Shown here: in pieces, positions 5,688 through 51,260 of the stretch
Numbering within the stretch: the first letter of the stretch is position 1
Layout: the number at the start of each line of letters is the position of its first letter
Notes under the pieces: generated by a model
Databases searched by the model: none
Seen by the model: only the letters and a program-made list of their open reading frames with translations
Told to the model about the DNA's origin: nothing
Translations under genes and position numbers: made by a program
Source: a bacterium
GTDB taxonomy: Bacteria; Hydrothermota; Tepidihabitantia; Tepidihabitantales; Tepidihabitantaceae
Length of the DNA stretch: 64,000 bases
Reading direction: 5' to 3'
Assembly (NCBI GenBank): GCA_035505375.1
Contig: DATJQV010000081.1
Coordinates: forward strand, 151,423-215,422

Positions 5688-6407
5688 TCATAGGTCGCGT
5701 GCGTCAGACGAATCAGGCATCTGGCCGGCGACCGCAAACAGCTTCTCGGCGAATTCCCAGTCTTCAGGAGTATCGATATCCTGGACGAGATAACGAGGTA
5801 TCAAGATGGGCAGGGCGTCACTGGAGAGCAAGCGTTTCTCGCGCTGGTACTTCTCCACGTCGCACCAGTAGAACTGACCGGCATCGTGGAATACGTCAGG
5901 CAGGTCCTGCGACCGTTTGGAGAGATTCTCGGGCCAGACCATCTCGACACGCCCCCGGTCGTTCAGTTTCAGCGAACGGAAGATAGGGTACGGGTACGTC
6001 GCAACCGAGAAAACCGAGGTAGCCTCATGCTCACGCATAACCTCCAACCCTCTGCTGATGTACTCCGGCCGGATGAGTGGGGCGGTCGCGTAGATGCAGC
6101 AGGCGTAACGGGCCGGCTGGTCGTGCTCGGCGAGCCAATTGAGAGCATGGATGATGACGGCATCGGTACCGGTGTGGTCGTCTGCCAGCTCGGCCGGACG
6201 CCGGAAAGGCACCTCGGCTCCGAATCGCTTGGCGACCTCCATAATCGCATCCGAGTCCGTTGAAACGATGATCCGGTCGAAGACACCGCTTTTCTGAGCA
6301 GCTCGGATGGAATGGGCAATCATCGGCAGGCCCGCGAAAATCTTGATGTTCTTGTCGGGTATTCGCTTACTCCCTGCCCGGGCAGGGATGATGGCTACGA
6401 CTCTCAC
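5688..6407 (-). CDS. pseF: Pseudaminic acid cytidylyltransferase (CMP-nonulosonate synthetase family)
   Basis: 239 aa. MRVVAIIPARAGSKRIPDKN is the acylneuraminate cytidylyltransferase signature. Confidence 0.8.
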   Translation of the reverse strand: MRVVAIIPARAGSKRIPDKNIKIFAGLPMIAHSIRAAQKSGVFDRIIVSTDSDAIMEVAKRFGAEVPFRRPAELADDHTGTDAVIIHALNWLAEHDQPARYACCIYATAPLIRPEYISRGLEVMREHEATSVFSVATYPYPIFRSLKLNDRGRVEMVWPENLSKRSQDLPDVFHDAGQFYWCDVEKYQREKRLLSSDALPILIPRYLVQDIDTPEDWEFAEKLFAVAGQMPDSSDARDL

Positions 6408-7594
6408 TTCCGGTACACCCCAATCACCTTGGTCAGAGCAAGGACCACGTCGCTGGCATCACTGTCGCTCATCGCGGGGAAGAGCGGCAGCGTCAGCATT
6501 CGGTCATACGCCTCTTCGGCCACCGGGCAGTCGCCCGGTTTCGTGCCGAAACGTCGCCGGTAGAATGGGTGTAGGTGCACCGGAACGTAGTGGACGTTCA
6601 CGCCGATGTTCTCGGCACGAAGCGCCGCAAAGATGCGGGCGCGGTCCACCTTCAGCCGCTCAAGCTGCAACTGCACCACATAGAGATGATAGGCATGACC
6701 CACTCCGGGCCGGACGCGCAGCGGCCTCACTTCCGGCATGTCGGCGAAAGCGCGGTTGTAGGTCGCGGCAATCTCGCGGCGCCGGGAAACCCACGCCGGC
6801 AGCTTCGCCAACTGGCTTAGACCCAGGGCGCACTGGAAATCGGTCATCCGGTAGTTGTAGCCGAGTTCCGTCATCTCATAGAACCAGGAGCCCCTCTCTT
6901 CGCGCTGACGATGGTCGGTGGTGATGCCATGGTTGCGGAAGATACGCATGCGCCCTGCCCGTTCGGGGTCGTCGGTCGTAATCATGCCGCCCTCGCCGGT
7001 CGTGACGTGTTTCACGGGATGAAATGAGAAGGTGCTCAGGTCTGCCAGCGAGCCGACCGGCCGCTCTCGATAGCTGCCGCCGATGGCGTGGCAGGCGTCC
7101 GCGACCAGTGCGAGCCTGTTCCTGCCCGTGACCTCGCGCAGAACGTCATAGTCGCAGGCTTGCCCGGCGTAGTCAACGGCGATGACCGCCCTGGTGCGGC
7201 GAGTGATGCGGGACTCGACCTGGCCCGGATTCAGCAACAGCGTGTCCGGGTCCACGTCGGCGAAGACCGGCGTGCCGCCCTGGTAGACGACGCAGTTGGC
7301 GCTGGCGGCAAAGGTCATGGCCGGCACAATCACCTCGTCACCTGGGCCGATTTCGAGGGCGAACATCGCGGCGTGAAGGGCAGCGGTACCGCTGCTTACA
7401 GCCACAGCCTCATTCGTGCCCACGGATTTGGCGAAGCCGCGCTCGAACTCCGCGACCCTCGGACCGGTGGTCAGCCAATCCCCTCGCAGAACCTCTACGA
7501 CCGCCCGGATGTCTTCTTCGTCAATGGACTGGTGGCCGTAGGCCAGCAGCTTCGGGCGGACCGGGGCACCGCCGTCAATCGCCAGTGACGTCAT
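6404..7594 (-). CDS. pseC: DegT/DnrJ/EryC1/StrS-family PLP aminotransferase (UDP-4-amino-4,6-dideoxy-N-acetyl-beta-L-altrosamine transaminase)
   Basis: 396 aa. It has the aminotransferase fold with a PLP-lysine region (FSFHPVKHVTTGEGG). It shows ATGA overlap coupling with pseF. Confidence 0.8.
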   Translation of the reverse strand: MTSLAIDGGAPVRPKLLAYGHQSIDEEDIRAVVEVLRGDWLTTGPRVAEFERGFAKSVGTNEAVAVSSGTAALHAAMFALEIGPGDEVIVPAMTFAASANCVVYQGGTPVFADVDPDTLLLNPGQVESRITRRTRAVIAVDYAGQACDYDVLREVTGRNRLALVADACHAIGGSYRERPVGSLADLSTFSFHPVKHVTTGEGGMITTDDPERAGRMRIFRNHGITTDHRQREERGSWFYEMTELGYNYRMTDFQCALGLSQLAKLPAWVSRRREIAATYNRAFADMPEVRPLRVRPGVGHAYHLYVVQLQLERLKVDRARIFAALRAENIGVNVHYVPVHLHPFYRRRFGTKPGDCPVAEEAYDRMLTLPLFPAMSDSDASDVVLALTKVIGVYRK

Positions 7595-7684
7595 TCCATT
7601 CCTCGCAGGGAGCCCGTCCCGGCGCGTTGGTGTTTGGATGGTACATCGGAGTATGTTAGCTTGCGTAACACGAGAGTCAACAGC

Positions 7685-8137
7685 TCATGGCTCACGGCCC
7701 GCAACAAGCGGCTTGCCAAACCTGCCGGCGGCTGTCCGGGGAAGGCGCAACTCCTGCGCGTGTAACCGCTTGGCCGGCTCGCCGATGTCGAACACATCCG
7801 TCCGTATCTTGGCCAGGACCCTAGGATCGCAGCCACGGGCCGCCCGCTTGCCCAGAAGTACCTGAACAGCCATCGCGAAGCTCTCGCCCGAGATGTGCCT
7901 CTGCCGGCTCAGTTTGTAGAGCTGCCGGCCGAAACTGAGGCAAGGGACATGCTGCGAGGTCGAAACCCCGCAGGCGTTTATGACCTCCCTGACATTGGTC
8001 TCCATCGCGCAGAGTTCGGTCATCGCCGCCTCGTAGCGCAGGGCCATTCCCTCGCGATGGTCGTTGAGCGTGTCCTTAACCCGCTCGACCTTGTACTTCG
8101 CCTTCCATCGCGCCGCACTTTTCACCGGGTCAGCCAT
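7685..8137 (-). CDS. Hypothetical small protein (150 aa); a degenerate second copy lies at about 24470-24834
   Basis: ORF with a balanced amino-acid composition. Its 5' end and upstream leader (ttcctccattcgt...) and two internal blocks are repeated almost verbatim near 24480-24790. No family was recognised. Confidence 0.45.
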   Translation of the reverse strand: MADPVKSAARWKAKYKVERVKDTLNDHREGMALRYEAAMTELCAMETNVREVINACGVSTSQHVPCLSFGRQLYKLSRQRHISGESFAMAVQVLLGKRAARGCDPRVLAKIRTDVFDIGEPAKRLHAQELRLPRTAAGRFGKPLVAGREP

Positions 8138-8380
8138 TCTGTTCCTCCATTCGTACTGCCTGTCTCACACCATCGCATTCCTGCATCGGGACCATGAACA
8201 ACTCAGCGTCCGGAAGCCAGAGGCTGGTCTCCAACCAAGAACCGTAGTATTTCAGAGTTCTGAGCCGTTCATTCTGGACTGTTTGTAGTGGAACGTGAAA
8301 TGTGGCAGCTAGATGACGTAAGGCACTCAAATGTAAGACGATAGTCGATGTGACTCATGAATCAGGATAGCACCTACCGG

Positions 8381-8685
8381 GTCACTCCCCGAGCCACTCC
8401 CCCAGTCACTCCCTGAGTGACTCCCCGAGTGAACCGGTAGGTGATCACCCCGTTGAACTGGCGGGTGAACCCCTGGGTCAGTCGGGGGATTAGTTACAGA
8501 CTGAGCTGGGAATTCATCTACCGACTTACTTGCCGGATAACTTAGTGGTTGAGTCGGTAGGTGACCCTAGGGGCGAGTCGTGGGGTGTATTGGTGGGTGA
8601 ACCGCTGGTTGACCTGCCGGATGACCTGCAGACTGACCAGCCGAATGACTTGAGCGGTGACTTGCCTAGTGACCTGCCGAGTCCA
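8381..8685. repeat. 12-nt-periodic tandem array (about 25 units, GTGAC/GTCAC-containing), copy 1
   Basis: Units include cccagtcactcc, ccgagtgactcc, ggtgacttgcct and agtgacctgccg, with a strict 12-nt register. It lies upstream of, and divergent from, the small ORF at 7685-8137. On the plus strand it reads as xDLP tetrapeptides. Confidence 0.8.
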
Positions 8686-8890
8686 ATCGGCAGCGGTTTC
8701 TCGATTCGGGTTCGATACTCTGCGCCGTGCGCTGAATCAAGCGCCGACAATCGCGCTGCTGCTCGTGATGGTTCTGAGAACGATGTGTGGGTCTGCGCAA
8801 TCGCTGAAGAGCGACGCGCTGACCGTTACGCCGGCCGGAGCCTTGGCCGGTGGCTTGCTTCGGGCCTGCGACCGGGCTTTCCGAGAAGTT

Positions 8891-11223
<2,333 letters not shown>

Positions 11224-20258: not shown

Positions 20259-20334
20259 GGGGTCTTAGTGTAGCCTGGTTTAACACGCTGCCCTGTCACG
20301 GCAGAGATCGCCGGTTCAAATCCGGTAGACCCCG
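20259..20334 (+). tRNA. tRNA-Asp (anticodon GTC)
   Basis: 76 nt cloverleaf read by hand. Acceptor GGGGTCT pairs with AGACCCC. D stem GTGT/ACAC. Anticodon stem CTGCC/GGCAG with loop CTGTCAC. T stem GCCGG/CCGGT with a TTCAAAT loop. Discriminator G. CCA is not encoded. Confidence 0.85.
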
Positions 20335-23002: not shown

Positions 23003-24034
23003 TTACGCCGGCTTCGTGCCGACCACCGGCTCACCCAGGCCGGCCGGCGCTTCGAGCCGTACCGAAAGGTCGGCGAGCCCGGCGCAGACCGCCTGCGCCT
23101 GCACGTCGGTCAACGCGGAGTCCTTCAGACGCGGCCACAGGCTCCGGGCCAGCGTCACGGCCGACCACGTAATCCTGACGTTGACGAACCCGGCGTCCTC
23201 CAGCGTTTCCTTCATCGCCTCGCTGGTGAAGTGCTCGAGCTCGTAGAAACTCGCGCCGGTGATAGCCGCCTGATTGCGCTCGAGGAACTGCAGCCCGACC
23301 TCCGGATTGGCCGAAGGGTTTGTGCCGATCCGCTCGACCAGGTCGCGGAGCTTCTGGAACTCCTCCTTCATCTCCGGCGTGTTCGCGAACTTCACGAGGT
23401 AGTTCCGCTCCCACGGCGGCCGCGTGTGCTTCAGCGAATAGTGGTAACCGAGCGAATCCGTCGTCTCGGTCAGCATCATGTCCTCGCTCAACTCACGCTC
23501 GCGCCCCTCGCTCGCCTCGAAGAAGACGCGGAACCGGCCGCCCGGCTTCAGCACGCGGAACACCTCGGCAATCGCCTTGTACGGATCCGGGCTCTGCTCG
23601 ATGGAAGTCGCGGCCACGACGCCGTCGAACCGGTTGTCGGGGAAATCGAGCCCGGTAACCGGCACCTTCTTCACCGTGACGTTCTTCAACCCGAGCTTCT
23701 CGGCGCCGGCGGTAATGGCATCCACCCGGCGCTGCGACGGCTCGGCGCCGGTCACGGCCCTGAACAATGGCGCGAGGCGGAGCAACGGCCAGCCGTCGCC
23801 GGGCCCGATGTCCAGAATGTCCTGGGCGCCACCCATGTGCGAGGCGAAGTCACGGATTTGCGCCTCGTCGAGGAAATGCTGCTCCAGCCCGTACTCAATC
23901 GGAACGTCGATGACCGGCAGCTTCCCGCCGCCCTGCCGCTCCATACGGTCAAAAGTCTGCTCTGCGCTGTTGGACTCGACCGGCTTGGCAGTATTGACAA
24001 TCCAAGTCTCAAGAACGGTGTATTTCTTCGCCAT
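23003..24034 (-). CDS. Class I SAM-dependent methyltransferase
   Basis: DILDIGPGDGWP (motif I), the acidic motif II and VLKPGGRF. The start is taken at MAKKYTV. Confidence 0.7.
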   Translation of the reverse strand: MAKKYTVLETWIVNTAKPVESNSAEQTFDRMERQGGGKLPVIDVPIEYGLEQHFLDEAQIRDFASHMGGAQDILDIGPGDGWPLLRLAPLFRAVTGAEPSQRRVDAITAGAEKLGLKNVTVKKVPVTGLDFPDNRFDGVVAATSIEQSPDPYKAIAEVFRVLKPGGRFRVFFEASEGRERELSEDMMLTETTDSLGYHYSLKHTRPPWERNYLVKFANTPEMKEEFQKLRDLVERIGTNPSANPEVGLQFLERNQAAITGASFYELEHFTSEAMKETLEDAGFVNVRITWSAVTLARSLWPRLKDSALTDVQAQAVCAGLADLSVRLEAPAGLGEPVVGTKPA

Positions 24035-24469
24035 GTTCGAGGCAATGATAGCCGCACCGGCAGGTAAGTCAACTCGCACCGACCGCCCTGAATCCGAAAT
24101 AGATGACCACGAAAACACAAGGAAACGGAGATGAGGCAGACATCCACAGATTCCGCAGATTCAGCTCCGGATTCCGGAACATCTGAGTAATCTGCGTAAC
24201 TGCGGATGGTCTCCTCTTTCGTTTCGTGTCTTTCGTGGCTTCAATATCGGCTCTGGAGACCGAGGCTTCGCCTCCTCATGGAACGGCGGGCTGCCGTCAT
24301 CCCGGCTGACCCATTCAACTCGCCTGTAATGTCAGACGAGCCCGTTCAGCTCGCCCCTCCATCACTTCGAGCACTCGCTCCTGCGATGGCCCGGCCATGT
24401 TAGACGAGTCAAGTAATCTCTCTTCGCCCGGGACGCGCCAGCGCCAGACAGCAGACGTCCCTACGACTT

Positions 24470-24834
24470 CGGCCAAGCTAGGTCGAAGACGTCCGTATCT
24501 TGGCCAGGACCTGACGCGCCCACGGCGCGAGTTACCAGTTTCCAGTTGGCAGGTTGCAGGATTCAGACGGCGGGATCGGAAGGCATTGCGTCGAGACCCC
24601 GCAGGCGTTGATGACCGCTTCGCCCTTGGTCTACATGGCGCATACCCGGGGAATGGTTGCTTCGTAGCGCACGGCCAAGTCTTCGCACAGGTCGCCAAGC
24701 GTCTCCCCGACTCGTTTCAGGTTGTACCTAGCCTTCGAGCGGACCGCTCTCTTCTTCTGGTCAGTCATATCGTTCCTCCATTCGTGTCTTGCTTGTTGCA
24801 ACGCCATAGTACCAGAGCGTATTCCATCCATCAA
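24470..24834 (-). pseudogene. Degenerate, internally deleted copy of the small ORF at 7685-8137
   Basis: The first roughly 35 codons are conserved (KARYNLKRVGETLGDLCEDLAVRYEA versus KAKYKVERVKDTLNDHREGMALRYEA). The frame is then lost. Downstream DNA retains the blocks cgtccgtatcttggccaggacc and ccccgcaggcgtt(g/t)atgacc found in copy 1. Confidence 0.55.
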
Positions 24835-24910
24835 CTGGCGCTATCAACAAGCATAAGCTATTGATATTTAAGGTGATAATTGGCATGCAGAGTCACCCGC
24901 GCCAGCACTC

Positions 24911-25222
24911 GGTAAGTCACTCCCCCAGTGATTCCCCCAGTCACTCCCCCAGTGACTCCCCCAGTCACTTACCGAGTGACTTACCGAGTCACTTGCCTGG
25001 TGAGTCACCGAGTGACTGGGCGAGTGACTCGCCTGGTGACTTACCGACTGACATGGTAAGTGACATGCCCAGTTACTTGCCCAGTGAGTTGCCGAGTGAC
25101 TTACCCAGTGACTCGTCTAGTGAGTCGGCAAGTGACTTGCCTAGTGACACGCCGAGTGACTCGCCGAGTGAATTACCTAGTGAATTACCGAGTGGTTTGC
25201 TGAGTGGTTTGCTGAGTAGTTT
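24911..25222. repeat. 12-nt-periodic tandem array (about 26 units), copy 2; possibly the coding part of a Ser-x-x-Pro tetrapeptide-repeat ORF (24885-25250, plus strand)
   Basis: Units cccagtcactcc, ccgagtgactta, cctagtgacacg and others in perfect register. In the plus frame they read SHSP SDSP SDLP SELP. The fourth codon varies ccc/ccg/cct, which is synonymous. AAGGTG lies 9 nt before the ATG at 24885. Confidence 0.75.
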
Positions 25223-25415
25223 GAAGACGGGTATGCAGCGTGTCGGCTGATTGGGCGCTGACCATGGCCTTGATCATTCCAAGGACGGCAGCTTGCGGCG
25301 GTATATAGACACCAGGAATGCAGGAAGCCATCCAGCAAGCTCTTGGACGAACAATCTATGGAGCCTTCTGGCGAGCAGCGGAGCCAGTCCCGACCGGTGC
25401 TGTTGAGGCCGCGCT

Positions 25416-26834
25416 CTAGCGCGTCAGGACCACCTTTCGGACAGCTTGCGCTTGAGCTTCTCGCACGAAGTACACGCCGGGGCTGAGGCGGCTCACGTCA
25501 TTCGCGCCCGCCATCAGGCCCATCACCTTCCGCCCGCTCACGTCCAGCAGGCTTGCGGCTTGTGGCTTGCAGCTTGCGGCTTCCGGAAGGAACAGCGCTC
25601 CGCGAACGACCGTCGTGGCCGGCTTGCGGCTTGAGGCTTGTGGCTTGAGGCTCTCTTCTACCCCTGAGGCGCACAGATAGCTGCCCCAGATCTGCTGGTC
25701 ACTGCTCTGCCATATGCACCAGTGTTCGGTAACACCGACTGTGGTCATGGTCGGGTTGGTCTTCCGCGCGGAGTCGATGCACACCGGAACGTCCTGGCTC
25801 GAGAACATTGTCCGCGAGTAGATATCAGAACCTCCGTTCCGGTTCGACACCCACGCCACCGCAGCCTGATTCCAGGACTCGGTCGTGTACTCGGCCGGAG
25901 TTCCGCAGGGCGTGAAGTTGCTGCCGGCTCCGCTTGAGTCGCACCACCGTCGTCCGACCGAGAACGTGTCCATCGCTGTGCCGTAGACAGCCGTGTCGCC
26001 GTCGCGCGTCGATTCCCATGTAATCCATGGTCCCAAAGCGACCGGCGTCGGGCCGTAGCTTATCACATCGGGATTGCGGTCCAGCGCCGCCGAGTGCGCG
26101 ACCTCCTGCGGCGTCAGCCAGGACCCACTTACGTACTCGCTGTAGAAGATGTCGCCGTGTGTCTCCCAGACGAGCAGCGGGCAACCATAGTAGAGCCCGT
26201 GGTAGCCGCGGCCGAGCCGCGCGTGGCGAATCGTGTCGACCTGGACCACCGCAGCCCGCTGCGTCGTCCACGAATCACCGCCGTTGAACGAATAGTCGAT
26301 GTGCCAGCCGTCCGTATCCTGACAGGTCCAAGTCACCCAGGCCGTGTCGTACGGGCTGCCGTGTCTGATGGCCATCACCTGCGGCCACGTCGAATCGACG
26401 CCGGCAGTTTTGCCGGAACCGACCAGAACCCGTGAACTCCACGCCTGTCCGGCCGTGTCGAATTGCGCGTAGATATCAGCCGTACCGGCGGGGTGCTCCC
26501 AGACGCAGCAGAAAACAGGCCTGCCCGAAGACGCGTCATTAACGCAGGCGACGGCAGGGTTGACTGCAGCCAGGTTTCCGGAGATTAGTGTAGCAGGCCC
26601 CCACCCGTTGCCGTCAGTGAATGAACAGAGCTGACCGAACACTTCCCAGCGGACGCCACTGGCGAAGGACTGCCAGACCATGCACGTCGTGTCACCGAAC
26701 ACCCATTCCTTGCAGGCCGACGGCTTGATGCCGCCGATGCTGTCGCCCAAGAGGAACGGCCCGGTCCAGCCCTGCGCTGCCGCGTGGGGTGGGACTAAAG
26801 CGCAGAGAATCAAAACTATGATGCAGAACCTCAA
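25416..26834 (-). CDS. BNR/Asp-box repeat secreted protein with a C-terminal T9SS/FlgD-Ig-like sorting domain
   Basis: Signal peptide, Trp-rich repeats with S-x-D-x-G-x-T-W boxes (SFNGGDSWT) and a CTD ending ANDVSRLSPGVYFVREAQ...VVLTR. Confidence 0.65.
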   Translation of the reverse strand: MRFCIIVLILCALVPPHAAAQGWTGPFLLGDSIGGIKPSACKEWVFGDTTCMVWQSFASGVRWEVFGQLCSFTDGNGWGPATLISGNLAAVNPAVACVNDASSGRPVFCCVWEHPAGTADIYAQFDTAGQAWSSRVLVGSGKTAGVDSTWPQVMAIRHGSPYDTAWVTWTCQDTDGWHIDYSFNGGDSWTTQRAAVVQVDTIRHARLGRGYHGLYYGCPLLVWETHGDIFYSEYVSGSWLTPQEVAHSAALDRNPDVISYGPTPVALGPWITWESTRDGDTAVYGTAMDTFSVGRRWCDSSGAGSNFTPCGTPAEYTTESWNQAAVAWVSNRNGGSDIYSRTMFSSQDVPVCIDSARKTNPTMTTVGVTEHWCIWQSSDQQIWGSYLCASGVEESLKPQASSRKPATTVVRGALFLPEAASCKPQAASLLDVSGRKVMGLMAGANDVSRLSPGVYFVREAQAQAVRKVVLTR

Positions 26835-26843
26835 GACTCCTCC

Positions 26844-28148
26844 TTACTTTACGACGACAATCCTCCTAACGTCTTCTTGCTCACTACTCATCTCTCCCCG
26901 CTCCCTCACGAAATACACGCCGGGCGCAAGTCGCGACACATCATTCGCGCCGGAGTGCAACTCCGCGACCTTGCGCCCCGCCGCATCCAGGAGGACAGCG
27001 CGGAAAATGGGGACTGTACCGCGCCGAGTCGGACGCAGCCGCTCCGAGGGACTGTCCCCGTTTTCAGCTCGCGGCACAAACAGCACGTTCCTGACGACTG
27101 AGGGCGTTCGCGGCAAGCTGCGGACTCCCAGTTCCCGCGGCGCATCGCTCAATCCCAAAATGCCCATACCGTGAGCTATCCAAATGGCTCCGTGGTCGGA
27201 GTAAGCAATCACGGGTTCATTAAACGTGTCAGTTGTGATATCGCACCTGCCCGGACTTACCGAATCTCGGACGACCGACGTCTCTCCCCCCAGCATTGCG
27301 AACTTGATGCGGCCTGCCCGAGCCCACACGCACTGGACGCCGGCGGGGTTGTTCATGCAGGCCGCGCCGATGGAAGTGACACTGTCCAGCCGCACCCCAT
27401 CGCAGACAAGTTTATCATTCACAGGGTCCATCGCCGACCAGAATGTGTGAATGTAGTCGGAGCCGTCGGCCGCCAACGCGGCAAGGACGCCGCCACCGCC
27501 ATGGATCCCGCCTGCCTCTGTATCTGACGTCCAAACCCCACTGTCTCGCGTGTAGAGACTGACATTGTAAAAGTCAAAGAAACCACCCATGACCCCGTCG
27601 TCACTCTCCATGAACGCGCAATTGCCGTTCCAGCACCAGGTCGGACGGGTGAACGTAATCCACCAGTCCGAGTAGTTGGAGTCGGGAGGGATGACCAAGC
27701 TGGTGTCCCAACCCGAGTCAGTTCTCTGACCGAGGCACACGTTGCCAAGGCTATCCTTGAACATAAGCGATGGCCGACCGGCAAGGTCATAGCTGAAAGC
27801 CACGCCACTCATGGGCATGGGTAGTTGCTCAGATGACCAGACGGAGTCTCTGCGTTCGGCGAGTCGTCCCGATCCCACTACGCCAATCACGTCTCCAGGG
27901 CCGATGTCGAATGAGAACGGGGGTCGAACAAACGCAGTGTCTAAGTCTTCGTACTCCCACACTGTATCCTTGTGGGCAAGCCTGATGGCGGAGTCACGGG
28001 TGAGGTACGCGAGCCAGATCGTCCCGTCACTCGTCTTGTCAATGGCCACGTACGACCCAATGCTCCCGCTATCGACCTGCTCGAATTCCCAGTAGCCGGC
28101 GAGACAGACAGATGCGGTCACGGCAACGACGACGACCAGCGCTCTCAT
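26844..28148 (-). CDS. Secreted T9SS-CTD protein, paralog 1 of 3 in tandem
   Basis: N-terminal signal MRALVVVVAVTASVCLAGYWEFEQVDSGSIGSYVAIDKTSDGTIWLAY. The C-terminal tail is GANDVSRLAPGVYFVRE. Confidence 0.6.
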   Translation of the reverse strand: MRALVVVVAVTASVCLAGYWEFEQVDSGSIGSYVAIDKTSDGTIWLAYLTRDSAIRLAHKDTVWEYEDLDTAFVRPPFSFDIGPGDVIGVVGSGRLAERRDSVWSSEQLPMPMSGVAFSYDLAGRPSLMFKDSLGNVCLGQRTDSGWDTSLVIPPDSNYSDWWITFTRPTWCWNGNCAFMESDDGVMGGFFDFYNVSLYTRDSGVWTSDTEAGGIHGGGGVLAALAADGSDYIHTFWSAMDPVNDKLVCDGVRLDSVTSIGAACMNNPAGVQCVWARAGRIKFAMLGGETSVVRDSVSPGRCDITTDTFNEPVIAYSDHGAIWIAHGMGILGLSDAPRELGVRSLPRTPSVVRNVLFVPRAENGDSPSERLRPTRRGTVPIFRAVLLDAAGRKVAELHSGANDVSRLAPGVYFVRERGEMSSEQEDVRRIVVVK

Positions 28149-28157
28149 TGCATCTCC

Positions 28158-29441
28158 TTACCTGACCACCACGACCCTCCTGACTCCCGCGCGCTCGTGG
28201 CCTACTCCTTCATCTCCCACAAAGTACACGCCCGGCGCAAGTCGCGACACATCGTTTGCGCCTATATGCAGCTCCGCCACTCTGCGCCCCGCCACATCCA
28301 GCAGGGCTGCGGCTTGGAGCTTGTGGTCTGAGGCCTGCGGCAGGAACAGCACGTTCCTGACAATTGAAGGAGCTCGTGCCATACTGCGGACTATCGACTC
28401 CCGCGGCTCATCGGTCAATCCAACGATGCCCACGCCGTGTGCGACCCAGATGGAGCCGTCGCTTCGGCAGAAGGCTATGACCGGCTCAGCCAACTTGTCA
28501 GTCGTGATGTCGCACCAGACGACCCGATCCGCGCCTCCGACGACTTGTGTCGGCTCCCCGAGCAGGACGAACTTGAGGAGGCTGTCACGGGCCCACCATG
28601 CACACTGCACGCGACCGGAGTCGTCCAGGCAGGCCGCGCCGATGCTGGTGCAGGCGTCCAAGACAACGCCGTCGCAGACCAATTCGTCCGCCACGTAGTT
28701 GTCGGCAGCCGACCAGAACGTGTGAATGCTGTCGGAACTGTCAACCAACGCGGCAAGCCCGATTCCTTCGCCGTCGAGCCCGCCCGTTCCGCCGAAGTCT
28801 GTCCAGACGCCGCTATCTCTTCGCTTGAAAGAGACTTCGTAACCGTCTTGCAGGCCCATGCTCCACCAGTCGGCCACAATGAGTGCGCAGTTGCCATTCC
28901 GGCGCCAAGCCGGAGCGGTAATAGTAGCCCACGTCGAGTTTTGTGGGACATAAAAGACATTCGTGTCCCAGGATGGGCCTGTCTTCAGGCCGACGCAGCC
29001 GCGCCCCAAGCTGTCCTTGAAAGTGAGCGACGGCCGGCCTGCCGGGTCATAGCTCATGGACAGACCGTACATGACCATTGGCAGTCGCTCGGACGCCCAG
29101 ACGGAATCTCTGCGTTGGGCGAGCCGACCCAGTCCGACCACGCCGATGGCGCCGTCCGTGCTCACGTCGAAGGAGAACGGGAGGTTGTCACGAAGGAAAT
29201 TCGAAGGGAATATGGGACGAACCAAGGCGGTATCCAGGTCTTGGTACTCCCACACTGAATCCCGGTGGGCGAGCCTGATCGCGGAGTCACGGGTAATGTA
29301 CGCGAGCCAGATGGTCCCGTCGCTCGTCTTGTCAATCGCGACGTACGACCCAATGCTACCGCTGTCTACCTGTTCGAATTCCCAGTAGCCGGCGAGACAG
29401 ACAGATGCGGTCATGGCAACGACGACAACCAACGCTTTCAT
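28158..29441 (-). CDS. Secreted T9SS-CTD protein, paralog 2 of 3
   Basis: Over 60% identical to paralog 1 in the N-terminal 120 aa (MKALVVVVAMTASVCLAGYWEFEQVDSGSIGSYVAIDKTSDGTIWLAYITRDSAIRLAH). Confidence 0.6.
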   Translation of the reverse strand: MKALVVVVAMTASVCLAGYWEFEQVDSGSIGSYVAIDKTSDGTIWLAYITRDSAIRLAHRDSVWEYQDLDTALVRPIFPSNFLRDNLPFSFDVSTDGAIGVVGLGRLAQRRDSVWASERLPMVMYGLSMSYDPAGRPSLTFKDSLGRGCVGLKTGPSWDTNVFYVPQNSTWATITAPAWRRNGNCALIVADWWSMGLQDGYEVSFKRRDSGVWTDFGGTGGLDGEGIGLAALVDSSDSIHTFWSAADNYVADELVCDGVVLDACTSIGAACLDDSGRVQCAWWARDSLLKFVLLGEPTQVVGGADRVVWCDITTDKLAEPVIAFCRSDGSIWVAHGVGIVGLTDEPRESIVRSMARAPSIVRNVLFLPQASDHKLQAAALLDVAGRRVAELHIGANDVSRLAPGVYFVGDEGVGHERAGVRRVVVVR

Positions 29442-29450
29442 TGCATCTCC

Positions 29451-30725
29451 TTACCTGACCACCACGACCCTCCTGACTCCCGCGCGCTCGTGGCCTACTC
29501 CTCCATCTCCCACAAAGTACACGCCCGGCGCAAATCGCGACACATCGTTTGCGCCTATATGCAGCTCCGCCACTCTGCGCCCCGCCGCATCCAGCAGGCT
29601 TGCGGCTTGTGGCTTGCGGCCTGAGGACTGCCGCAGCAACAGGACGTTCCTGACGACTGAGGGAATTCTCGACAGGCTGCTGACTGCCGACTGCTGCGGC
29701 GCATCGCTCAGTGCGGCAACGCCCACCCCGTGGGCGACGTGAATGGAACCGTCGCTCAAGCGGTATGCGATCACGGGCTGTGAAAGTGAATCGGTCGTTA
29801 TGTCACAGCAGGTGATACTGACGCCGCTCAAGACCACCTGTATCGGCTCATGGAGCAAGTCGAACTCCAGCGCATTGTTGCCTACCCATACGCACTGCAC
29901 GCGGCCGGAGCCGTCCAGGCAGGCCGCGCCGATGGAAGTGTAACCGTCCAGTCGCACCCCATCGCAGACAAGTTCATCAGTCCCGTAAGGGTCGCCTGCC
30001 GACCAGAGTGTGTGAATGCTGTCGGAGCTGTCAGCCAACGCCGCAAACCCGCAACCGCCGCCGTCGAGTCCGCCCGCTCCGCCGAAGTCTGTCCAGACAC
30101 CGTTGTCTCGTCGTTTGAGAGAGACGTCGTAACCGTCAATCAAGCCACCCTCGGTCCACACGTCGGCCTCAATGAGTGCGCAGTTGCCGTTCCGGCGCCA
30201 ACCCGGGCGGGTAAGGGAATACGTGTTGCTATCCGTCATGTAGACAACATTCGTATCCCAGGAGGAATCAGTCTTCAGGCCAAGACACCCGCGCCAGAGG
30301 CTGTCCTTGAACGTAAGCGATGGCCGACCGGCCGGGTCATAGCTTAAGGCCGCATCTCTCATGGGCATCGGTAGTTGCTCAGATGACCAGACGGAGTCTC
30401 TGCGTTCGGCGAGTCGTCCCGATCCCACTACGCCCATCACATCTCCAGGCCCGATGTCAAACGAGAAAGGCGGCCGGACGAGCGACGTATCCAAGTCTTC
30501 GTACCACCACCCCGCGTCCGCGTGCGCAAGCCGGATGACGGAATCGCGGTTCTCGTAGGCGAGCCAGATGGTCCCGTCACTCGTCTTGTCAATGGTCACG
30601 TACGACCCAATGCTCCCATTGTCCACCAGTGCGAAGGTCCAATAGCCTGCACGGCAGATGGTCGCGACCGTGGCAATGGCGACCACGGATATTTGAAGAC
30701 GCCGGCAGAAGTCAAACGTTGCCAT
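29451..30725 (-). CDS. Secreted T9SS-CTD protein, paralog 3 of 3
   Basis: The start is taken at MATFDFCRRLQISVVAIATVATICRAGYWTFALVDNGSIGSYVTIDKTSDGTIWLAY. The ORF is open upstream to 30989, probably without meaning. Confidence 0.55.
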   Translation of the reverse strand: MATFDFCRRLQISVVAIATVATICRAGYWTFALVDNGSIGSYVTIDKTSDGTIWLAYENRDSVIRLAHADAGWWYEDLDTSLVRPPFSFDIGPGDVMGVVGSGRLAERRDSVWSSEQLPMPMRDAALSYDPAGRPSLTFKDSLWRGCLGLKTDSSWDTNVVYMTDSNTYSLTRPGWRRNGNCALIEADVWTEGGLIDGYDVSLKRRDNGVWTDFGGAGGLDGGGCGFAALADSSDSIHTLWSAGDPYGTDELVCDGVRLDGYTSIGAACLDGSGRVQCVWVGNNALEFDLLHEPIQVVLSGVSITCCDITTDSLSQPVIAYRLSDGSIHVAHGVGVAALSDAPQQSAVSSLSRIPSVVRNVLLLRQSSGRKPQAASLLDAAGRRVAELHIGANDVSRFAPGVYFVGDGGVGHERAGVRRVVVVR

Positions 30726-36041: not shown

Positions 36042-36129
36042 TCATTTTCGATTTCCGCTTGTCGATTTCCGATTGTCCGCCCAGACTTCTGAATTCTGCC
36101 TTCTGGTTTCTGAATTCTGAATCGTCCTG

Positions 36130-37657: not shown

Positions 37658-38815
37658 TCACTCCTTTTCGGTTCGGGTCAAGAAACGTTCGACATGATCC
37701 CGCCTTGGCATGGATGGTTCAGCGCCCATGATGGTGCAGGCGAGAGCGCCGCAGGCGTTGGCGAATCGCACAGCTTCATCAAGGCTGGCACCCTCGGCAA
37801 TTCTCACCGCCAATCCGGCGCGGAACGCATCCCCAGCGCCGGTCGTGTCCACGACGTTCACCTTGTGCGCCGGGAACCGGGTCAGCGCGGCGCGGTCAAC
37901 TGCCAGCGCGCCTTCTTCGCCGAGTGAGATAACCACGCCCTGCCGCGTCTCGGGCAGAAGCACAGCCGCCGCTTCCTCCGGCGTCATCCTGCCGGTCAGC
38001 ATGTGGGCTTCGATTTCGTTGGGCACAAGGTAGTCAAAGTAGAAGTCGTCCAGTGGTCTCGTGGTCGAGTGTTCCGGCATCTCCGTTCTGGAACTCTGGC
38101 TTCTGCCCCCTTCTGTCTGACTTGGTGCCTTTGCGTCTTGGTGGTGAAATCCGTCTCCGCAATTCTGGTTTCTAGTTTCTGGTTTCTGGTCTCTGGTTTC
38201 TCCGTCCGCCTTTGTGTCTTCGTGTCTTTGTGGTGAATCCCCGCAATTCTGGACCCTGGACTCTGGATTCTGGATTCTGGATTCTTCCTGTCCTCCATGC
38301 CTCACCGGCGCAGGGTCGAGCAGCACCAGTGTTCCGTGCTTCCGGGCAATCTCGGCGGCACGCCGCGACGCTGCCAACGGTATCTCGAACTGGAGCATCA
38401 GGATGTCGGCGAGGGCAATCTGCTCCTCTACCGCGAGCACATCCTCGGGCGTCACGCGCATGTTGGCCCGCGGCGCGGCGATGATGCTGTTCTGCCCGTT
38501 CTCGTCCACGACCGGCGTGGCAATCGCGGTTCCCGCCTCAGGGTCGCGGGTCACGCCACTCAGGCAGATTCCTTCCTGCTCCAGCTTGGCGACGAACATG
38601 TCACCGAACGGGTCGCGGCCGACCCGACCGACGATGCACACGTCAGCGCCCAGTCGCCTCGCTCCGACCGCCTGGTTGAACCCCTTGCCGCCGAGGAACA
38701 TACCGAAGTCTTCGGCCAGCATCGTCTCGCCCGGTCCGGGCCGGTGCTTCACTCTAAACATGAGGTCGGTCACGAAGCTCCCGACAACCAGAACGCGAGG
38801 CCGGTCGCCTTTCAT
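37658..38815 (-). CDS. PfkB/ribokinase-family sugar kinase carrying an in-frame insertion of about 75 aa
   Basis: N-terminal GGKGFNQA and C-terminal DTTGAGDAF motifs. Between LDPAPV and DDFYFDYLVPNE, where E. coli RbsK has about 8 residues, lies about 75 aa of low-complexity sequence. It is encoded by heptamer and 35-nt repeats at 38090-38300. Confidence 0.7.
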   Translation of the reverse strand: MKGDRPRVLVVGSFVTDLMFRVKHRPGPGETMLAEDFGMFLGGKGFNQAVGARRLGADVCIVGRVGRDPFGDMFVAKLEQEGICLSGVTRDPEAGTAIATPVVDENGQNSIIAAPRANMRVTPEDVLAVEEQIALADILMLQFEIPLAASRRAAEIARKHGTLVLLDPAPVRHGGQEESRIQNPESRVQNCGDSPQRHEDTKADGETRDQKPETRNQNCGDGFHHQDAKAPSQTEGGRSQSSRTEMPEHSTTRPLDDFYFDYLVPNEIEAHMLTGRMTPEEAAAVLLPETRQGVVISLGEEGALAVDRAALTRFPAHKVNVVDTTGAGDAFRAGLAVRIAEGASLDEAVRFANACGALACTIMGAEPSMPRRDHVERFLTRTEKE

Positions 38816-41616: not shown

Positions 41617-41908
41617 GCTATTCTGTAGGTTATTCTCCAGCTTACCCGGAGAGCAATTCCGAGGATTGCTCCGCAGGCAATCCGGTGAGGAATCCGGAGA
41701 GCTACCTGGTCTGCTCTTCGGTCAGTTGCTCGGCGGGCTATTCGGAGAGGAACTCGGCGAGCTATCCGGAAAGCTGCCGGGAGGGTAATTGGAAGAGCTC
41801 CTCCTCAGATTGCCCGGAGAATAGCCGGGCAAGTAACTCGGAAAGCAACCTCCCGAGCAACTGTGCGGACAATCCGGAGAACTACCGGGCGGGCTATTCG
41901 GAAAGTAG
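41617..41908. repeat. 12-nt (24-nt super-period) tandem array, a different motif family (xGCTATYCGGAR); possibly part of a tetra/octapeptide-repeat ORF (41478-41993, plus strand)
   Basis: About 24 units, for example ggctattcggag aggaactcggcg agctatccggaa agctgccgggag. Differences between units at positions 3, 6 and 12 are almost all transitions (c/t, a/g), as expected for synonymous third-codon sites in the plus frame. Confidence 0.7.
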
Positions 41909-45546: not shown

Positions 45547-45615
45547 CAGGGGATTCGGATAATCCAGAATCCAGAGTCCAGAGCTCAGAATCCAGAATCG
45601 ACGGACGGGACGAGG

Positions 45616-45975
45616 ATGAGGGACTTCCGATCGGACCTGAGCGAACGGCTGCTAGACTTCGCGGTCAGCGTCGTTGCGCTCGCCCCGCGTCTGCAGCGCT
45701 CGGCAACCGGTCGTTTCATGGTGGGGCAACTGGTGCGTTCTGCTTCCTCAGCAGGTGCGAACTTCCATGAAGCTTGTGGTGCCGAAAGCAGAGCCGACTT
45801 CGCACATAAGATGCAGGTGGTCCTCAAGGAATTGCGCGAGACCGAGTACTGGTTGAAGCTGGTCACGCGGGCAAAACTGCTTCCGACCGATCTGCTGTCG
45901 GAACCATTGGCTGAGGCGGACGAGTTGATCAGAATCGTGGTGAAGTCCGTTGTCACTGCCAAGTCGAGACCCTGA
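45616..45975 (+). CDS. Four-helix-bundle protein (PF05635 family), copy 2
   Basis: FAVSVVALAPRL...VRSASSAGANFHEACGAESRADFAHKMQVVLKELRETEYWL. Confidence 0.7.
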   Translation: MRDFRSDLSERLLDFAVSVVALAPRLQRSATGRFMVGQLVRSASSAGANFHEACGAESRADFAHKMQVVLKELRETEYWLKLVTRAKLLPTDLLSEPLAEADELIRIVVKSVVTAKSRP

Positions 45976-46041
45976 TGTCGGGTTTGTCAATTCTGGGTTC
46001 TAGTCTCTGGATTCTGAATTCTGGACTATCCGGAGTCCGCC

Positions 46042-47259: not shown

Positions 47260-48013
47260 AGCGACCAGGGATGAGGGACTAGGGGCTAGGGGTCAGGTTT
47301 CGGACCCTGACCCCCAACCCCTGACCCCTGACCCCTCGGTCGTGCTCCGCGCGACCGACGTATGGCGCGTGTTCGAGACCGGGGCTGAGCGTCTGGAAAT
47401 CCTCCGCGGCGTGAACCTGGAGGTCAGCCGAGGCGAGCTGGTGGCGATTCTCGGCCCTTCGGGAACCGGCAAATCTACCCTCCTGCACGTGCTCGGAGCG
47501 CTGGATCGCCCCACAAGAGGCCGAGTGTTCCTTGATTCAGCTGACGTTTTCAGCTACCCTGAGTCCAAGCTCCACGAACTGAGAAATCGGAAGCTCGGGT
47601 TCGTGTTCCAGTTTCACCACTTGCTGTCCGAGTTCACGGTTCTGGAGAACGTGGCAATGCCGCTGCTTGTTGCGGGCGTGGCTCGGCCCGAGGCGATGGA
47701 CCGTGCGCACCGCGTGCTCGAGGACGTCGGATTCCTGACCCGGCTCACCCACCGGCCGTCCGAGCTATCGGGCGGAGAAAAGGCGCGGGCGGCAGTGGGA
47801 CGCGCGCTGGTGAATAACCCGGCGGTGATTCTCGCCGACGAGCCGACCGGCAACCTCGACACGACCTCGGCGGCGGCGCTGGTTGACCTGATGGTGCGAC
47901 TGAGCAGCGAAAGGAAAATGACGATTCTGGTAGTGACTCACAATCAGTCCGTCGCCGACCGAGCGACACGCCGGCTCCATCTAGCCGAAGGAAGACTCAC
48001 GGAGGAGAGGTGA
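47252..48013 (+). CDS. lolD: Lipoprotein-release ABC transporter ATP-binding protein LolD
   Basis: Walker A GPSGTGKST, LSGGE signature and ILADEPTGNLD. ATGA overlap with lolE. The first 30 codons run through a GGGGYTA/GGGGTCA heptamer element. An alternative GTG start lies at 47342. Confidence 0.8.
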   Translation: MSEATRDEGLGARGQVSDPDPQPLTPDPSVVLRATDVWRVFETGAERLEILRGVNLEVSRGELVAILGPSGTGKSTLLHVLGALDRPTRGRVFLDSADVFSYPESKLHELRNRKLGFVFQFHHLLSEFTVLENVAMPLLVAGVARPEAMDRAHRVLEDVGFLTRLTHRPSELSGGEKARAAVGRALVNNPAVILADEPTGNLDTTSAAALVDLMVRLSSERKMTILVVTHNQSVADRATRRLHLAEGRLTEER

Positions 48014-49743: not shown

Positions 49744-51260
49744 GGCAGAAGGGGTCAGGGGTCAGGGGTCAGGGGTCAGAAGCTGGAAGTCAGAATAAGC
49801 AGACCGGACTGCGCGGACTTCCGTCGGTGGACAAACTTCTCAGTGACGAGACGCTCGCGCCCGTGCTCGCGCAAGTCCACCGCCGCATGGCGGTGCGGGC
49901 AATCCGAGCCTATCTCGACGAGCTACGGGAGAACCTGAAAGAGCCGCAACACGCAGACGGCAAGCCCCAAGCGTTCTCAATGGCGGAGTTGCTGCGCCGA
50001 CTCGAACGAGAGCGCAAGCCGACGCTGGCGCGCGCCATCAATGGCCTTGGCGTCATTCTGCACACTGGGCTGGGGCGCGCGCCGCTGTCCAAGGCTGCAC
50101 AGGAAGCGCTTACTGACGTGAGCGAGCACTTCTCCAGCCTTGAAATCGACATCGAGACCGGACGGCGCGGCAGCCGCTACCGGCACATCGAACCGCTGCT
50201 GTGCGAACTGACGGGCGCTGAGGCGGCGATGGTCGTCAACAACAACTGCGCGGCTACCTTGCTAATCCTGTCCGGGCTGGCCAAAGGCAAAGAGGCGATT
50301 GTCTCGCGCGGCCAGCTTGTCGAAATCGGCGGCGCGTTCCGAATCCCCGACGTGATGATGCAAAGCGGATGCAAGATGGTCGAGGTCGGCACGACCAATC
50401 GCACTCACCTGCGCGACTACAATAATGCCATCACTCCGGAGACGGCGCTCCTGCTCCGGGTTCACACCTCCAACTACAAGATTACCGGGTTCACCAAGGA
50501 AGTAAGCCTCGAAGAGATGGTAGCTCTCGCCCAAGAGGTCAATCGCTCGCCCCTCGCCCCTCGCCCCTCGCCCCTCCTCGTCGTGGACGACCTCGGTTCA
50601 GGGGCGCTCGTCGACCTTTCGAAGTACGGCCTGCCCAAGGAACCGCTGGTACAGGAATCGGTCAAGGCCGGAGCGGACGTCATCTGCTTCTCCGGGGACA
50701 AACTCATTTCCGCGTCGCAAGCCGGCATCATCGTCGGCAAGAAGAAGCACATCGACCTGCTGAAGAAGCATCCGCTCACCCGGGCCATGCGCTGCGGCAA
50801 GCTCACCTACGCCGTGCTCGAACGGACACTGGAGCTGTTCCTTGACGAGGAACGCGCAGTCAAGGAACATGCGCTCTTCCAGTTACTGCTGAAGACCACG
50901 GACCAGATGCAGGGCGAAGCCGATGAACTCGTGCGCCGGGTTCAGTCTCTTCTCCCTCTCCCTCTCCCTCCGGGAGAGGGTTGGGGTGAGGGCGACAACG
51001 TCGTGGCCAAGTTCACCGTCAGACCTGCTCTTTCCGAAATCGGCGGCGGCTCACTCGCGACCGAGAGCCTCGAATCGCGGGTAGTTGCCATCACGCCGAA
51101 GACGATGCATGTCGACGAGCTGGCCCGTCGCATGCGTCTCAATCGGCCCCCGGTGTTCGGCCGGGTCGAAAAGGGCGAATACCTGCTCGACTTCCGTACC
51201 CTCCGCCGCGACGAAATCCCCATTATCTCTTCCGCGCTCCTCTCCGCTTTCCAGCAGTAG
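49740..51260 (+). CDS. selA: L-seryl-tRNA(Sec) selenium transferase SelA
   Basis: PLP fold with the lysine in FSGDKL. A GTGA overlap with the mcsB stop. The N-terminus and two internal sites contain heptamer or palindromic insertions. Confidence 0.75.
   Translation: MRQKGSGVRGQGSEAGSQNKQTGLRGLPSVDKLLSDETLAPVLAQVHRRMAVRAIRAYLDELRENLKEPQHADGKPQAFSMAELLRRLERERKPTLARAINGLGVILHTGLGRAPLSKAAQEALTDVSEHFSSLEIDIETGRRGSRYRHIEPLLCELTGAEAAMVVNNNCAATLLILSGLAKGKEAIVSRGQLVEIGGAFRIPDVMMQSGCKMVEVGTTNRTHLRDYNNAITPETALLLRVHTSNYKITGFTKEVSLEEMVALAQEVNRSPLAPRPSPLLVVDDLGSGALVDLSKYGLPKEPLVQESVKAGADVICFSGDKLISASQAGIIVGKKKHIDLLKKHPLTRAMRCGKLTYAVLERTLELFLDEERAVKEHALFQLLLKTTDQMQGEADELVRRVQSLLPLPLPPGEGWGEGDNVVAKFTVRPALSEIGGGSLATESLESRVVAITPKTMHVDELARRMRLNRPPVFGRVEKGEYLLDFRTLRRDEIPIISSALLSAFQQ

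Follow-up and report, generated by a model that had tools for sequence, protein, structure and literature searches.

A bacterial family of Adnaviria capsid-protein homologues in candidate division WOR-3 and the 12-bp repeat arrays on which its members may dock

In a 64,000-nt stretch of the genome of a Hydrothermota bacterium (GenBank assembly GCA_035505375.1, contig DATJQV010000081.1, positions 151,423 to 215,422 of the forward strand; this whole stretch is called the window here), a small gene is preceded, beyond its own leader, by an array of 12-bp units, and a second, damaged copy of the same cassette of gene and array is found elsewhere in the window. Judged from profiles and from its predicted structure, the encoded protein is a relative of the major capsid proteins (MCPs) of the Adnaviria, and the array most probably has no coding role and serves as a series of docking sites for this capsid-like protein. 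The best overall explanation, to which a probability of roughly 0.55 is given, is that the cassettes are one type within a large family restricted to candidate division WOR-3, and that their capsid-like dimers dock one per 12-bp unit.

The original prediction, made from the sequence of the window, had left the small protein in an “unknown” family, whereas it turned out to belong to a recognisable and unexpected one, that of the Adnaviria coat protein relatives. Searched singly, the window protein found nothing above threshold in Pfam, PHROGs or NCBIfam, and a look-up in the ESM Atlas gave no usable lead (best score 0.86, the Atlas’s own model being poor). A profile of 45 family members gave weak but coherent matches to the coat proteins of archaeal filamentous viruses, and 42 of the 45, searched one at a time, matched the Pfam family PF12193 (Sulfolobus virus coat protein) at E<=1, the best of them at 4.1e-7. 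With a profile of 85 sequences, the coat proteins of SSRV1 (6wq0_A, E 6.3e-9) and SIRV2 (3j9x_A, 2.1e-8) were matched over positions 4-112 of 123; the same profile also matched the SFV1 coat protein and both coat proteins of AFV1, its PDB matches including 6d5f (6e-5) and 5w7g_B (2.7e-4).

The AlphaFold 2 model, with a predicted local distance difference test (pLDDT) value of 91, places helices at residues 4-14, 17-55, 60-79, 84-100 and 105-116, i.e., a long N-terminal helical arm followed by a C-terminal helix bundle. The leading Foldseek matches of this model were SIRV2, AFV1 ORF140, SSRV1, the C-terminus of the SIRV coat protein and AFV1 ORF132, with template modelling (TM) scores of 0.62-0.66, and a search of a viral structure library agreed with this ranking. 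When VIA-align was run against 48,161 PDB chains, the six best were all Adnaviria coat proteins, with Z scores of 13.7 (121 aa aligned), 12.1, 11.9 (root-mean-square deviation 2.1 over 80), 10.6, 9.2 and 9.0, and the next chain, an unrelated one, scored 7.8. Because the sequence profiles, the AlphaFold model and the structural search concur, the family can be regarded, at the level of profile and predicted fold, as an established true homologue of the Adnaviria MCP. Of the 45 members, 22 also matched Pfam DUF3150 (PF11348) weakly, with a best E of 2.5e-4, and the same fold may be shared by this other bacterial family.

The likeness to the viral MCPs (SIRV2 and SSRV1 of the Rudiviridae; AFV1, SFV1 and SIFV of the Lipothrixviridae; PFV2 of the Tristromaviridae) lies in profile and architecture. 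The differences are that those proteins belong to a realm of archaeal viruses whereas the present family is bacterial and chromosomal, with 27 loci in one genome, that no virion genes accompany it here, and that sequence-phased arrays are not known for the viruses. An MCP proper is encoded by a virus genome and builds the virion; the window gene is chromosomal, with a pseB-like and a pseC-like gene on either side. Since the family is chromosomal, has no viral genes beside the copies examined, and was found in all 31 of the 31 genomes searched in the order (WOR-3/Hydrothermota), those of 1.5 Mb included, its members are described as MCP homologues and a capsid role is not claimed for them.

In the genome to which the window belongs (3.62 Mb, 62% GC, 90 contigs; G000), tblastn with the 150-aa open reading frame (ORF) of the first cassette reached 37 places, and a family hidden Markov model resolved 27 distinct loci. 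About 15 of these are intact genes of 123 aa, the usual family length, in about seven clades, and about nine, all of the window’s clade (“type A”), carry truncations or frameshifts. In pairs of intact paralogues, most differences fall in third codon positions (2:4:18 and 5:5:23 by position), and the small gene family is one of real genes. The relatives are 123-aa hypothetical proteins, and those named by organism all come from candidate division WOR-3. In metagenomes, 1147 family clusters were obtained at 50% identity (E<=1e-3); a census placed the family in roughly 18 of the 51 genera of one Hydrothermota class, matches elsewhere being weak only, and the number of matches per genome was 2-15 in small genomes and 14-68 in the window’s own genus. 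At C89:32363-33178, behind AAAGCTC-type arrays, two capsid-like domains stand in tandem in one open frame, which may be a fused pseudo-dimer that recalls the two-protein heterodimers of the lipothrixviruses.

The association of gene and array is not confined to the window. The original prediction had described the module as “present twice”, whereas the genome contains about 11 modules of this type and 27 loci of the protein family. A 12-nt periodic region lies within 1 kb upstream of 19 of the 27 family loci and downstream of none; random positions meet a 12-nt array 4.2% of the time, which gives a binomial P of about 1e-20. The same was seen at 70 loci in other WOR-3 assemblies, where identity at a lag of 12 was at least 0.5 upstream in 60% of cases and downstream in 1.6%, and where the best lag was 12 or 24 in 50 of the 70. 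Each of the eleven type-A arrays in the genome lies 95-250 bp upstream of a gene or gene remnant, and in relatives a promoter-like TTGAC-N17-TAnnnT and a conserved ribosome-binding site (RBS) are found between array and ATG. Of 69 loci, 20 have opening units of the form GTSAC-YCCCC on their upstream side and none has them downstream; such units are common to many arrays of clades that are 43-72% identical to the window protein. The unit cores, which are often palindromic, differ between paralogue clades (Table 1).

The structure of the unit was analysed with 252 units from the 11 type-A loci, whose mutual identity is only ~70%. These units have the consensus A G T S A C T Y n C C G, and their information content is mirror-symmetric about position 4 (0.99, 0.98, 1.56 / 0.70 / 1.58, 0.78, 0.90), so that the core, AGT-S-ACT, has dyad symmetry; GTGAC and GTCAC are the reverse complements of each other. 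Nearly all GTSAC sites of a type-A array fall into a single 12-nt phase, e.g., 16 of 17 in one array and 17 of 19 in another, and this periodicity is far beyond chance.

Arrays of this general kind are abundant in the genome, where 210 regions (31 kb) of 12-nt periodicity were found in at least ten unit families, including CAAAGCTC, GGAGAGCAACCC, CCAGAGACnTTG and CGGGATAAGCGC; the window’s type is the fourth most common. A third 12-nt array in the window, unrelated to the other two, lies at 41675-41764, with AATCCGGAGAGG as the consensus unit given by Tandem Repeats Finder (TRF). Clustering of the ORFs around all array families returned mostly repeat-encoded artefacts. A 379-aa protein with an N-terminus that is helix-turn-helix-like by eye adjoins arrays at nine loci, including C10:2305, and seven of the nine have arrays of the CCAGAGACnTTG family, which points to different partner proteins for different array families.

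A reason for the period can be sought in the viral homologues. In the virions of SIRV2, AFV1 and PFV2 each MCP dimer covers 12 bp of A-form DNA (PMC5517147, PMC7189273), and the period of the array equals this footprint. On B-form DNA, sites spaced by 12 bp would come to lie on different faces of the helix, whereas in a coat of the viral type every 12th base pair would be equivalent. The original prediction had considered that the array could be a “binding-site series”, and this suggestion is in keeping with the dyad-symmetric core and the constraint at the level of DNA as well as with the match between period and footprint. In the mechanism that is favored here, every unit would be occupied by a single dimer whose dyad coincides with the central base. 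Assembly is proposed to start from the crisp inverted units nearest the promoter and to extend along the phased units, leading to a short nucleoprotein filament, about 26 dimers long on about 310 bp of DNA, located upstream of the gene’s own promoter. Because the array adjoins the promoter, this filament might feed back on the gene. In most type-A cassettes the gene has been lost but the array retained, so that the few paralogues still intact would act in trans on such arrays.

A number of points weigh against such docking. The binding of the protein to the array, the register of one dimer per unit, the A-form and a cellular role are matters that we infer, and sequence reading is, to our knowledge, not known for Adnaviria coat proteins. 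The copy 1 protein looks degenerate, with 13.8 bits of its own against a PF12193 cut-off of 25.2. A family gene is missing beside most of the 210 arrays, and another factor could therefore serve them. Conversely, eight of the 27 family loci have no array, among them those of the clade with the top score against the widest family profile; members of this clade follow a sigma-70 region-4 protein in three of the four copies in the genome. Furthermore, 12 is a multiple of 3, and an SxxP (Ser-x-x-Pro) frame with a marginal PT-repeat match is open at copy 2; finally, with palindromic cores in mixed orientation, the predicted single-strand fold is very stable (z -12).

Several of these points are accommodated by the rival that survives best, according to which the arrays are phased sites or minisatellites for another factor or for none, and the protein is a sequence-blind DNA-coating (nucleoid) protein or has some other role, the pairing of gene and array being the result of co-duplication only. 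Orphan arrays and an array-less clade with the top profile score speak for it, the helix-turn-helix-like protein of 379 aa recurs beside another array family, and the viral homologues coat DNA without known specificity. However, the linkage holds across paralogue clades with less than 30% identity and across genomes, upstream always and downstream never, and co-duplication alone is therefore insufficient. Nor would this rival account for a period that equals the dimer footprint of the homologues, or for unit cores that vary by clade while the phasing is retained, and on balance it is considered unlikely.

The proposal that the ORF and the divergent array form one “mobile or recombinogenic” unit is supported by three observations: the pair recurs, truncated versions of it have multiplied, and a genome of the same genus (G009) is without the cassette. 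There, the pseC-like gene is the direct neighbour of the pseB-like gene, with ~177 nt between the matched segments as compared with 1471 nt in the window; this empty site is 70% identical to the window locus and thus too distant to define the ends of the cassette. The truncated remnants have a common breakpoint (window 7957-7959 / 24590, also C66:26526 and C75:545), and therefore the truncated cassette was itself copied. An assembly duplication of the two window loci can be set aside because their flanks are unrelated and only the module is common to both (~71% identity over 196 nt of the gene). Neither terminal inverted repeats nor target duplications were seen at the cassette ends 7595/8890, and no transposase-like family emerged from the Pfam, PHROGs and NCBIfam scans of the window protein. 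An IS200/RAYT-like transposase was considered and rejected, being unsupported by family or fold. The evidence is best read as describing a mobile, or at least copy-prone, unit whose copies have increased in number and changed place within the genome.

A cassette that is multi-copy and polymorphic in its insertion sites, with many decayed copies and a gene homologous to a capsid protein, might also derive, as a relic or satellite, from a filamentous virus or plasmid of WOR-3 that is yet to be discovered, in which case the array would be a packaging or terminal-repeat signal and the gene would encode the coat protein. That several paralogues sit among restriction-modification and toxin-antitoxin genes would agree with such an origin. 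On the other hand, a scan of the IMG/VR viral contigs found no relatives of the family, no further viral genes were present beside any family copy examined, and the cassettes, with a size of ~1.3 kb, are located in housekeeping operons. The occurrence of the protein family in every one of the 31 genomes searched in the order, those of 1.5 Mb included, also speaks against a viral relic, which is regarded as improbable.

The original prediction had offered a second possibility for the array, namely that it is a gene for a disordered protein of Ser-x-x-Pro tetrapeptides, divergent from the small gene. The 129-aa SxxP frame that it had pointed out, at 24861-25250 and overlapping array 2, is indeed open, and frames of 121-149 aa with similar N-termini are open in several copies. 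The copy 2 frame matched the Pfam PT repeat (PF04886) marginally, with 27.8 bits against a cut-off of 26.2 and an E value of 1.9e-6 (no single stretch passing), and it also matched the SD-repeats of adhesins, both matches being low-complexity. The translated array is SxxP- or SD-rich like the PT-repeat and SD-repeat adhesins, but the constraint at the protein level that would be expected of a tetrapeptide-repeat gene is absent. In the units, “Ser” is encoded by AGT 156 times, by AGC 3 times and by TCN 0 times, although AGT makes up 7% of the Ser codons of the genome. Where this codon is changed it becomes GGT, ACT, AAT or GAT, i.e., the T is conserved and the serine is not, and T3 and A5 are both retained where the encoded “amino acid” changes; the mirror symmetry of the information content is likewise a property of DNA. 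In the closest pair of arrays (91% identical), the differences fall evenly over the codon positions (4:5:7); 11 codon changes are non-synonymous and 4 are synonymous, and the two indels each measure exactly 12 nt, so that paralogous arrays diverge neutrally at the codon level. The AGT bias and these neutral differences therefore demonstrate that the constraint acts on the DNA and not on an SxxP protein. The SxxP reading of array 1 is interrupted by an in-frame TAG at 8491-8493, gene callers placed no gene in the equivalent gap of eight public contigs, and the arrays of other clades have no consistent reading frame. The 129-aa frame is thus probably non-coding, and a translated array is given very little credence.

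It is just as doubtful that the array is transcribed and that hairpins form between its opposed GTGAC and GTCAC units, as a structured RNA or as single-stranded DNA, for although array 2 has a predicted fold of -152 kcal/mol (z -12 vs shuffles) and array 1 starts with an inverted repeat, the fold is stable because the cores are palindromic, the units are mostly in one orientation (GAC 113, CAC 48), the arrays of other genomes retain only the T-N-A core with the complementarity gone, and no Rfam match was found at the arrays.

The positions of the two cassettes and the unit cores of the different clades are collected in Table 1. In the first cassette, both the 150-aa ORF and the 12-nt periodic array upstream of it, reading away from it, were found as had been claimed. 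The first four units of array 1 are crisp (GTCAC, GCCAC, GTCAC, GTGAC, each followed by a C-rich spacer) and form an inverted repeat with arms of 29 nt (8371-8399 / 8415-8443). The later units are degenerate, of the form NNT-S-A, with the T at position 3 and the A at position 5 kept. This array had been called “probably decayed”, a description that does not hold: the units are in phase throughout, the sequence is 81-84% identical over ~600 nt to two other genomic copies (C24:14437-15025 and C66:69521-70235), and the same layout, in which crisp, inverted units nearest the promoter give way to degenerate T-N-A units, is common in other WOR-3 genomes. The gene, by contrast, had been taken as intact, and here the open frame of 150 aa stands but its integrity is doubtful. 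Three near-invariant family columns are altered (Y63H, Y66C and W98R), the normal stop after residue 123 is lost, and the -35-like hexamer deviates from the conserved TTGAC, so that the copy 1 gene is open but probably decaying. In contigs from three wetland metagenomes that were placed on 6400-9900, the assemblies break inside array 1; one contig steps back by 48 nt, from 8431 to 8384, which is too weak for a claim of variation in unit number.

At the second cassette, the truncated copy of the ORF, with the same leader and RBS, and the cleaner second array were both located as described. Copy 2 is a remnant: its reading frame ends after 45 codons, its similarity to copy 1 in DNA spans 24466-24785, and a short remnant of the 3′ end of the gene is present at 24466-24512. 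Its promoter-like pair aligns with TTGACT-N17-TATTCT of the intact paralogues; consensus scans for sigma-70 promoters and terminators at both window loci flagged neither of the two promoter-like pairs. In array 2, the first seven units alternate between GTCAC and GTGAC and the last three are degenerate, and the whole is 91% identical to C66:25608-26526. The idea of a duplication “decaying in alternate halves” is not supported. On its flanks, copy 2 has an ORF at 23003-24118 on one side and a 472-aa secreted-type ORF on the other. Remnants with 85-86% identity to the segment 24498-24640 are found at C35:18514-18656 and C89:55559-55701; each of them lies ~230 nt from arrays of another unit type, CGGTCTnGTAGA, and this hints at recombination between cassettes of different clades.

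Table 1. Features of the two cassettes in the window, with window coordinates, and unit cores of the arrays associated with different paralogue clades
Feature	Position	Strand	Remark
Cassette 1, ~1.3 kb	7595-8890	-	between pseC-like start (7594) and pseB-like stop (8891)
Copy 1 capsid-protein-like gene	7685-8137	-	open for 150 aa
Copy 1 family domain	7769-8137	-	residues 1-123
Copy 1 read-through past lost normal stop	7685-7768	-	27 codons beyond the usual end of the family
Copy 1 leader and promoter region	8138-8379	-	
Copy 1 RBS GGAGGAA	8142-8148	-	conserved in leader alignment
Copy 1 weak promoter-like pair TTTCAC-N18-CAGAAT	~8271-8300	-	putative, from leader alignment
Array 1, 26 in-phase 12-bp units	8380-8691	+	starts 243 bp from copy 1 ATG
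Distal part of cassette 1	8692-8890	.	within insertion relative to G009
Copy 2 scrambled 3′ part	24466-24640	-	sequence similarity
Copy 2 gene remnant, codons 1-60 (N-terminal arm)	24590-24768	-	same RBS as copy 1
Copy 2 promoter-like pair TTGATG-N17-TACTAT	24806-24834	-	putative; between ATG and array
Array 2, 26 units of AGT-S-ACT + 5-nt spacer	24915-25226	+	
Array unit AGT-S-ACT			type A clade
Array unit G-N-GAC			clade of C81:101404
Array unit GGTC or CGTC			C30:14460
Array unit TAGAC-S-GTCTA			C16:82835
Array unit AAAGCTC			beside C89:32363 and C39:30706
Array unit CGGGATAAG			beside C15:8768
Another array unit			beside C42:62454

Among known systems, the arrangement of the cassette is most readily compared with plasmid centromere modules. 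In ParR/parC of R1, TubR/tubC of pBtoxis and omega/heptads of pSM19035, the gene of a small DNA-binding protein is preceded by tandem iterons on the promoter side, and these centromere proteins polymerise cooperatively on their repeats and autoregulate. Tandem iterons near the promoter of a gene for the binding protein are the point of likeness, the array of the cassette starting 100-250 bp before the ATG, beyond the promoter-like pair. The plasmid modules differ in their binding proteins, which are of the ribbon-helix-helix or winged helix-turn-helix type, folds that are not among the leading matches here, and in having a motor gene (ParA, ParM or TubZ), none of which was found beside the window copies or in the eight public contigs. 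The cassettes are furthermore one-gene, chromosomal and multi-copy, with ~26 units per array. The small acid-soluble spore proteins of the alpha/beta type are also small helical proteins of bacteria, and DNA coated by them becomes more A-like, but they have an unrelated fold, are sequence-blind, lack cognate arrays and are confined to the spores of Firmicutes. Repetitive extragenic palindromic (REP) sequences and bacterial interspersed mosaic elements (BIME) with their REP-associated tyrosine transposases (RAYT), as well as miniature inverted-repeat transposable elements (MITEs), are likewise short, palindromic and dispersed, with many units orphaned from a gene and with insertion polymorphism. 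They differ from the cassettes, for which no HUH or transposase similarity and no terminal inverted repeats were found; REP/BIME are also single hairpins as opposed to strictly phased tandem arrays.

Some further features of the genome and the window were recorded. The copies of the array-less clade are located at C3:47621, C15:10743, C42:64093 and C52:2017; ORFs of 226-229 aa are found just upstream of those on C15 and C42, with restriction-modification and toxin-antitoxin genes nearby, and at L119:5048-6372 a gene of this clade lies ~290 nt behind a 219-aa Sigma70_r4_2 protein. Heptanucleotide tandem repeats are very common, with 508 period-7 TRF rows genome-wide; the runs in the window are at 25550-25586, 25621-25652, 29597-29620, 36044-36122, 38163-38285, 45561-46025, 47263-47336, 49750-49779 and 50546-50576. 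The first two of these lie within the C-terminal part of the 472-aa ORF (25416-26834, minus strand), the tail of which looks like a sorting domain of the secretion type, and a change in unit number would shift the frame. At 62485-64000, a tandem repeat of 126/252 nt in ~12 copies with ~71% identity reaches the end of the window and is coding-like. Neighbouring stretches of 26894-30000 are mutually 70-72% identical and resemble tandem paralogous genes, as in the case of 27071-29429, which matches C81:179759-182108 of the genome, ~1.3 kb further on. The sole Rfam match in the window is a tRNA gene at 20259-20334.

The realm Adnaviria has been described as archaea-specific, with an MCP that is unique and unconnected to the viruses of bacteria or eukaryotes (PMC9169541, PMC10848233). 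In the literature that was searched, neither bacterial homologues of the Adnaviria capsid protein nor such repeats in WOR-3 were found, which does not disprove their existence. A large bacterial family of true homologues alters this archaea-only picture and bears on the origin of the capsid protein. A more far-reaching version, in which the coat of archaeal-virus type is cellular and sequence-addressed, with paralogues that recognise their own 12-bp arrays and polymerise A-form-like filaments at ~200 sites per chromosome, is tentative, and the odds are somewhat against it; such a sequence-addressed coat would amount to a new kind of bacterial chromatin or addressing system, and the family would then be the cellular counterpart of the Adnaviria capsid protein that has long been sought, or else a sign of the reach of the realm into bacteria. 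The match between period and footprint yields the hypothesis of a DNA-wrapping protein that is loaded at defined sequences. If this loading hypothesis holds, the cassettes would provide a natural system for the sequence-programmed assembly of A-form DNA filaments, and some 31 kb of puzzling 12-nt repeats in this genome would be explained.

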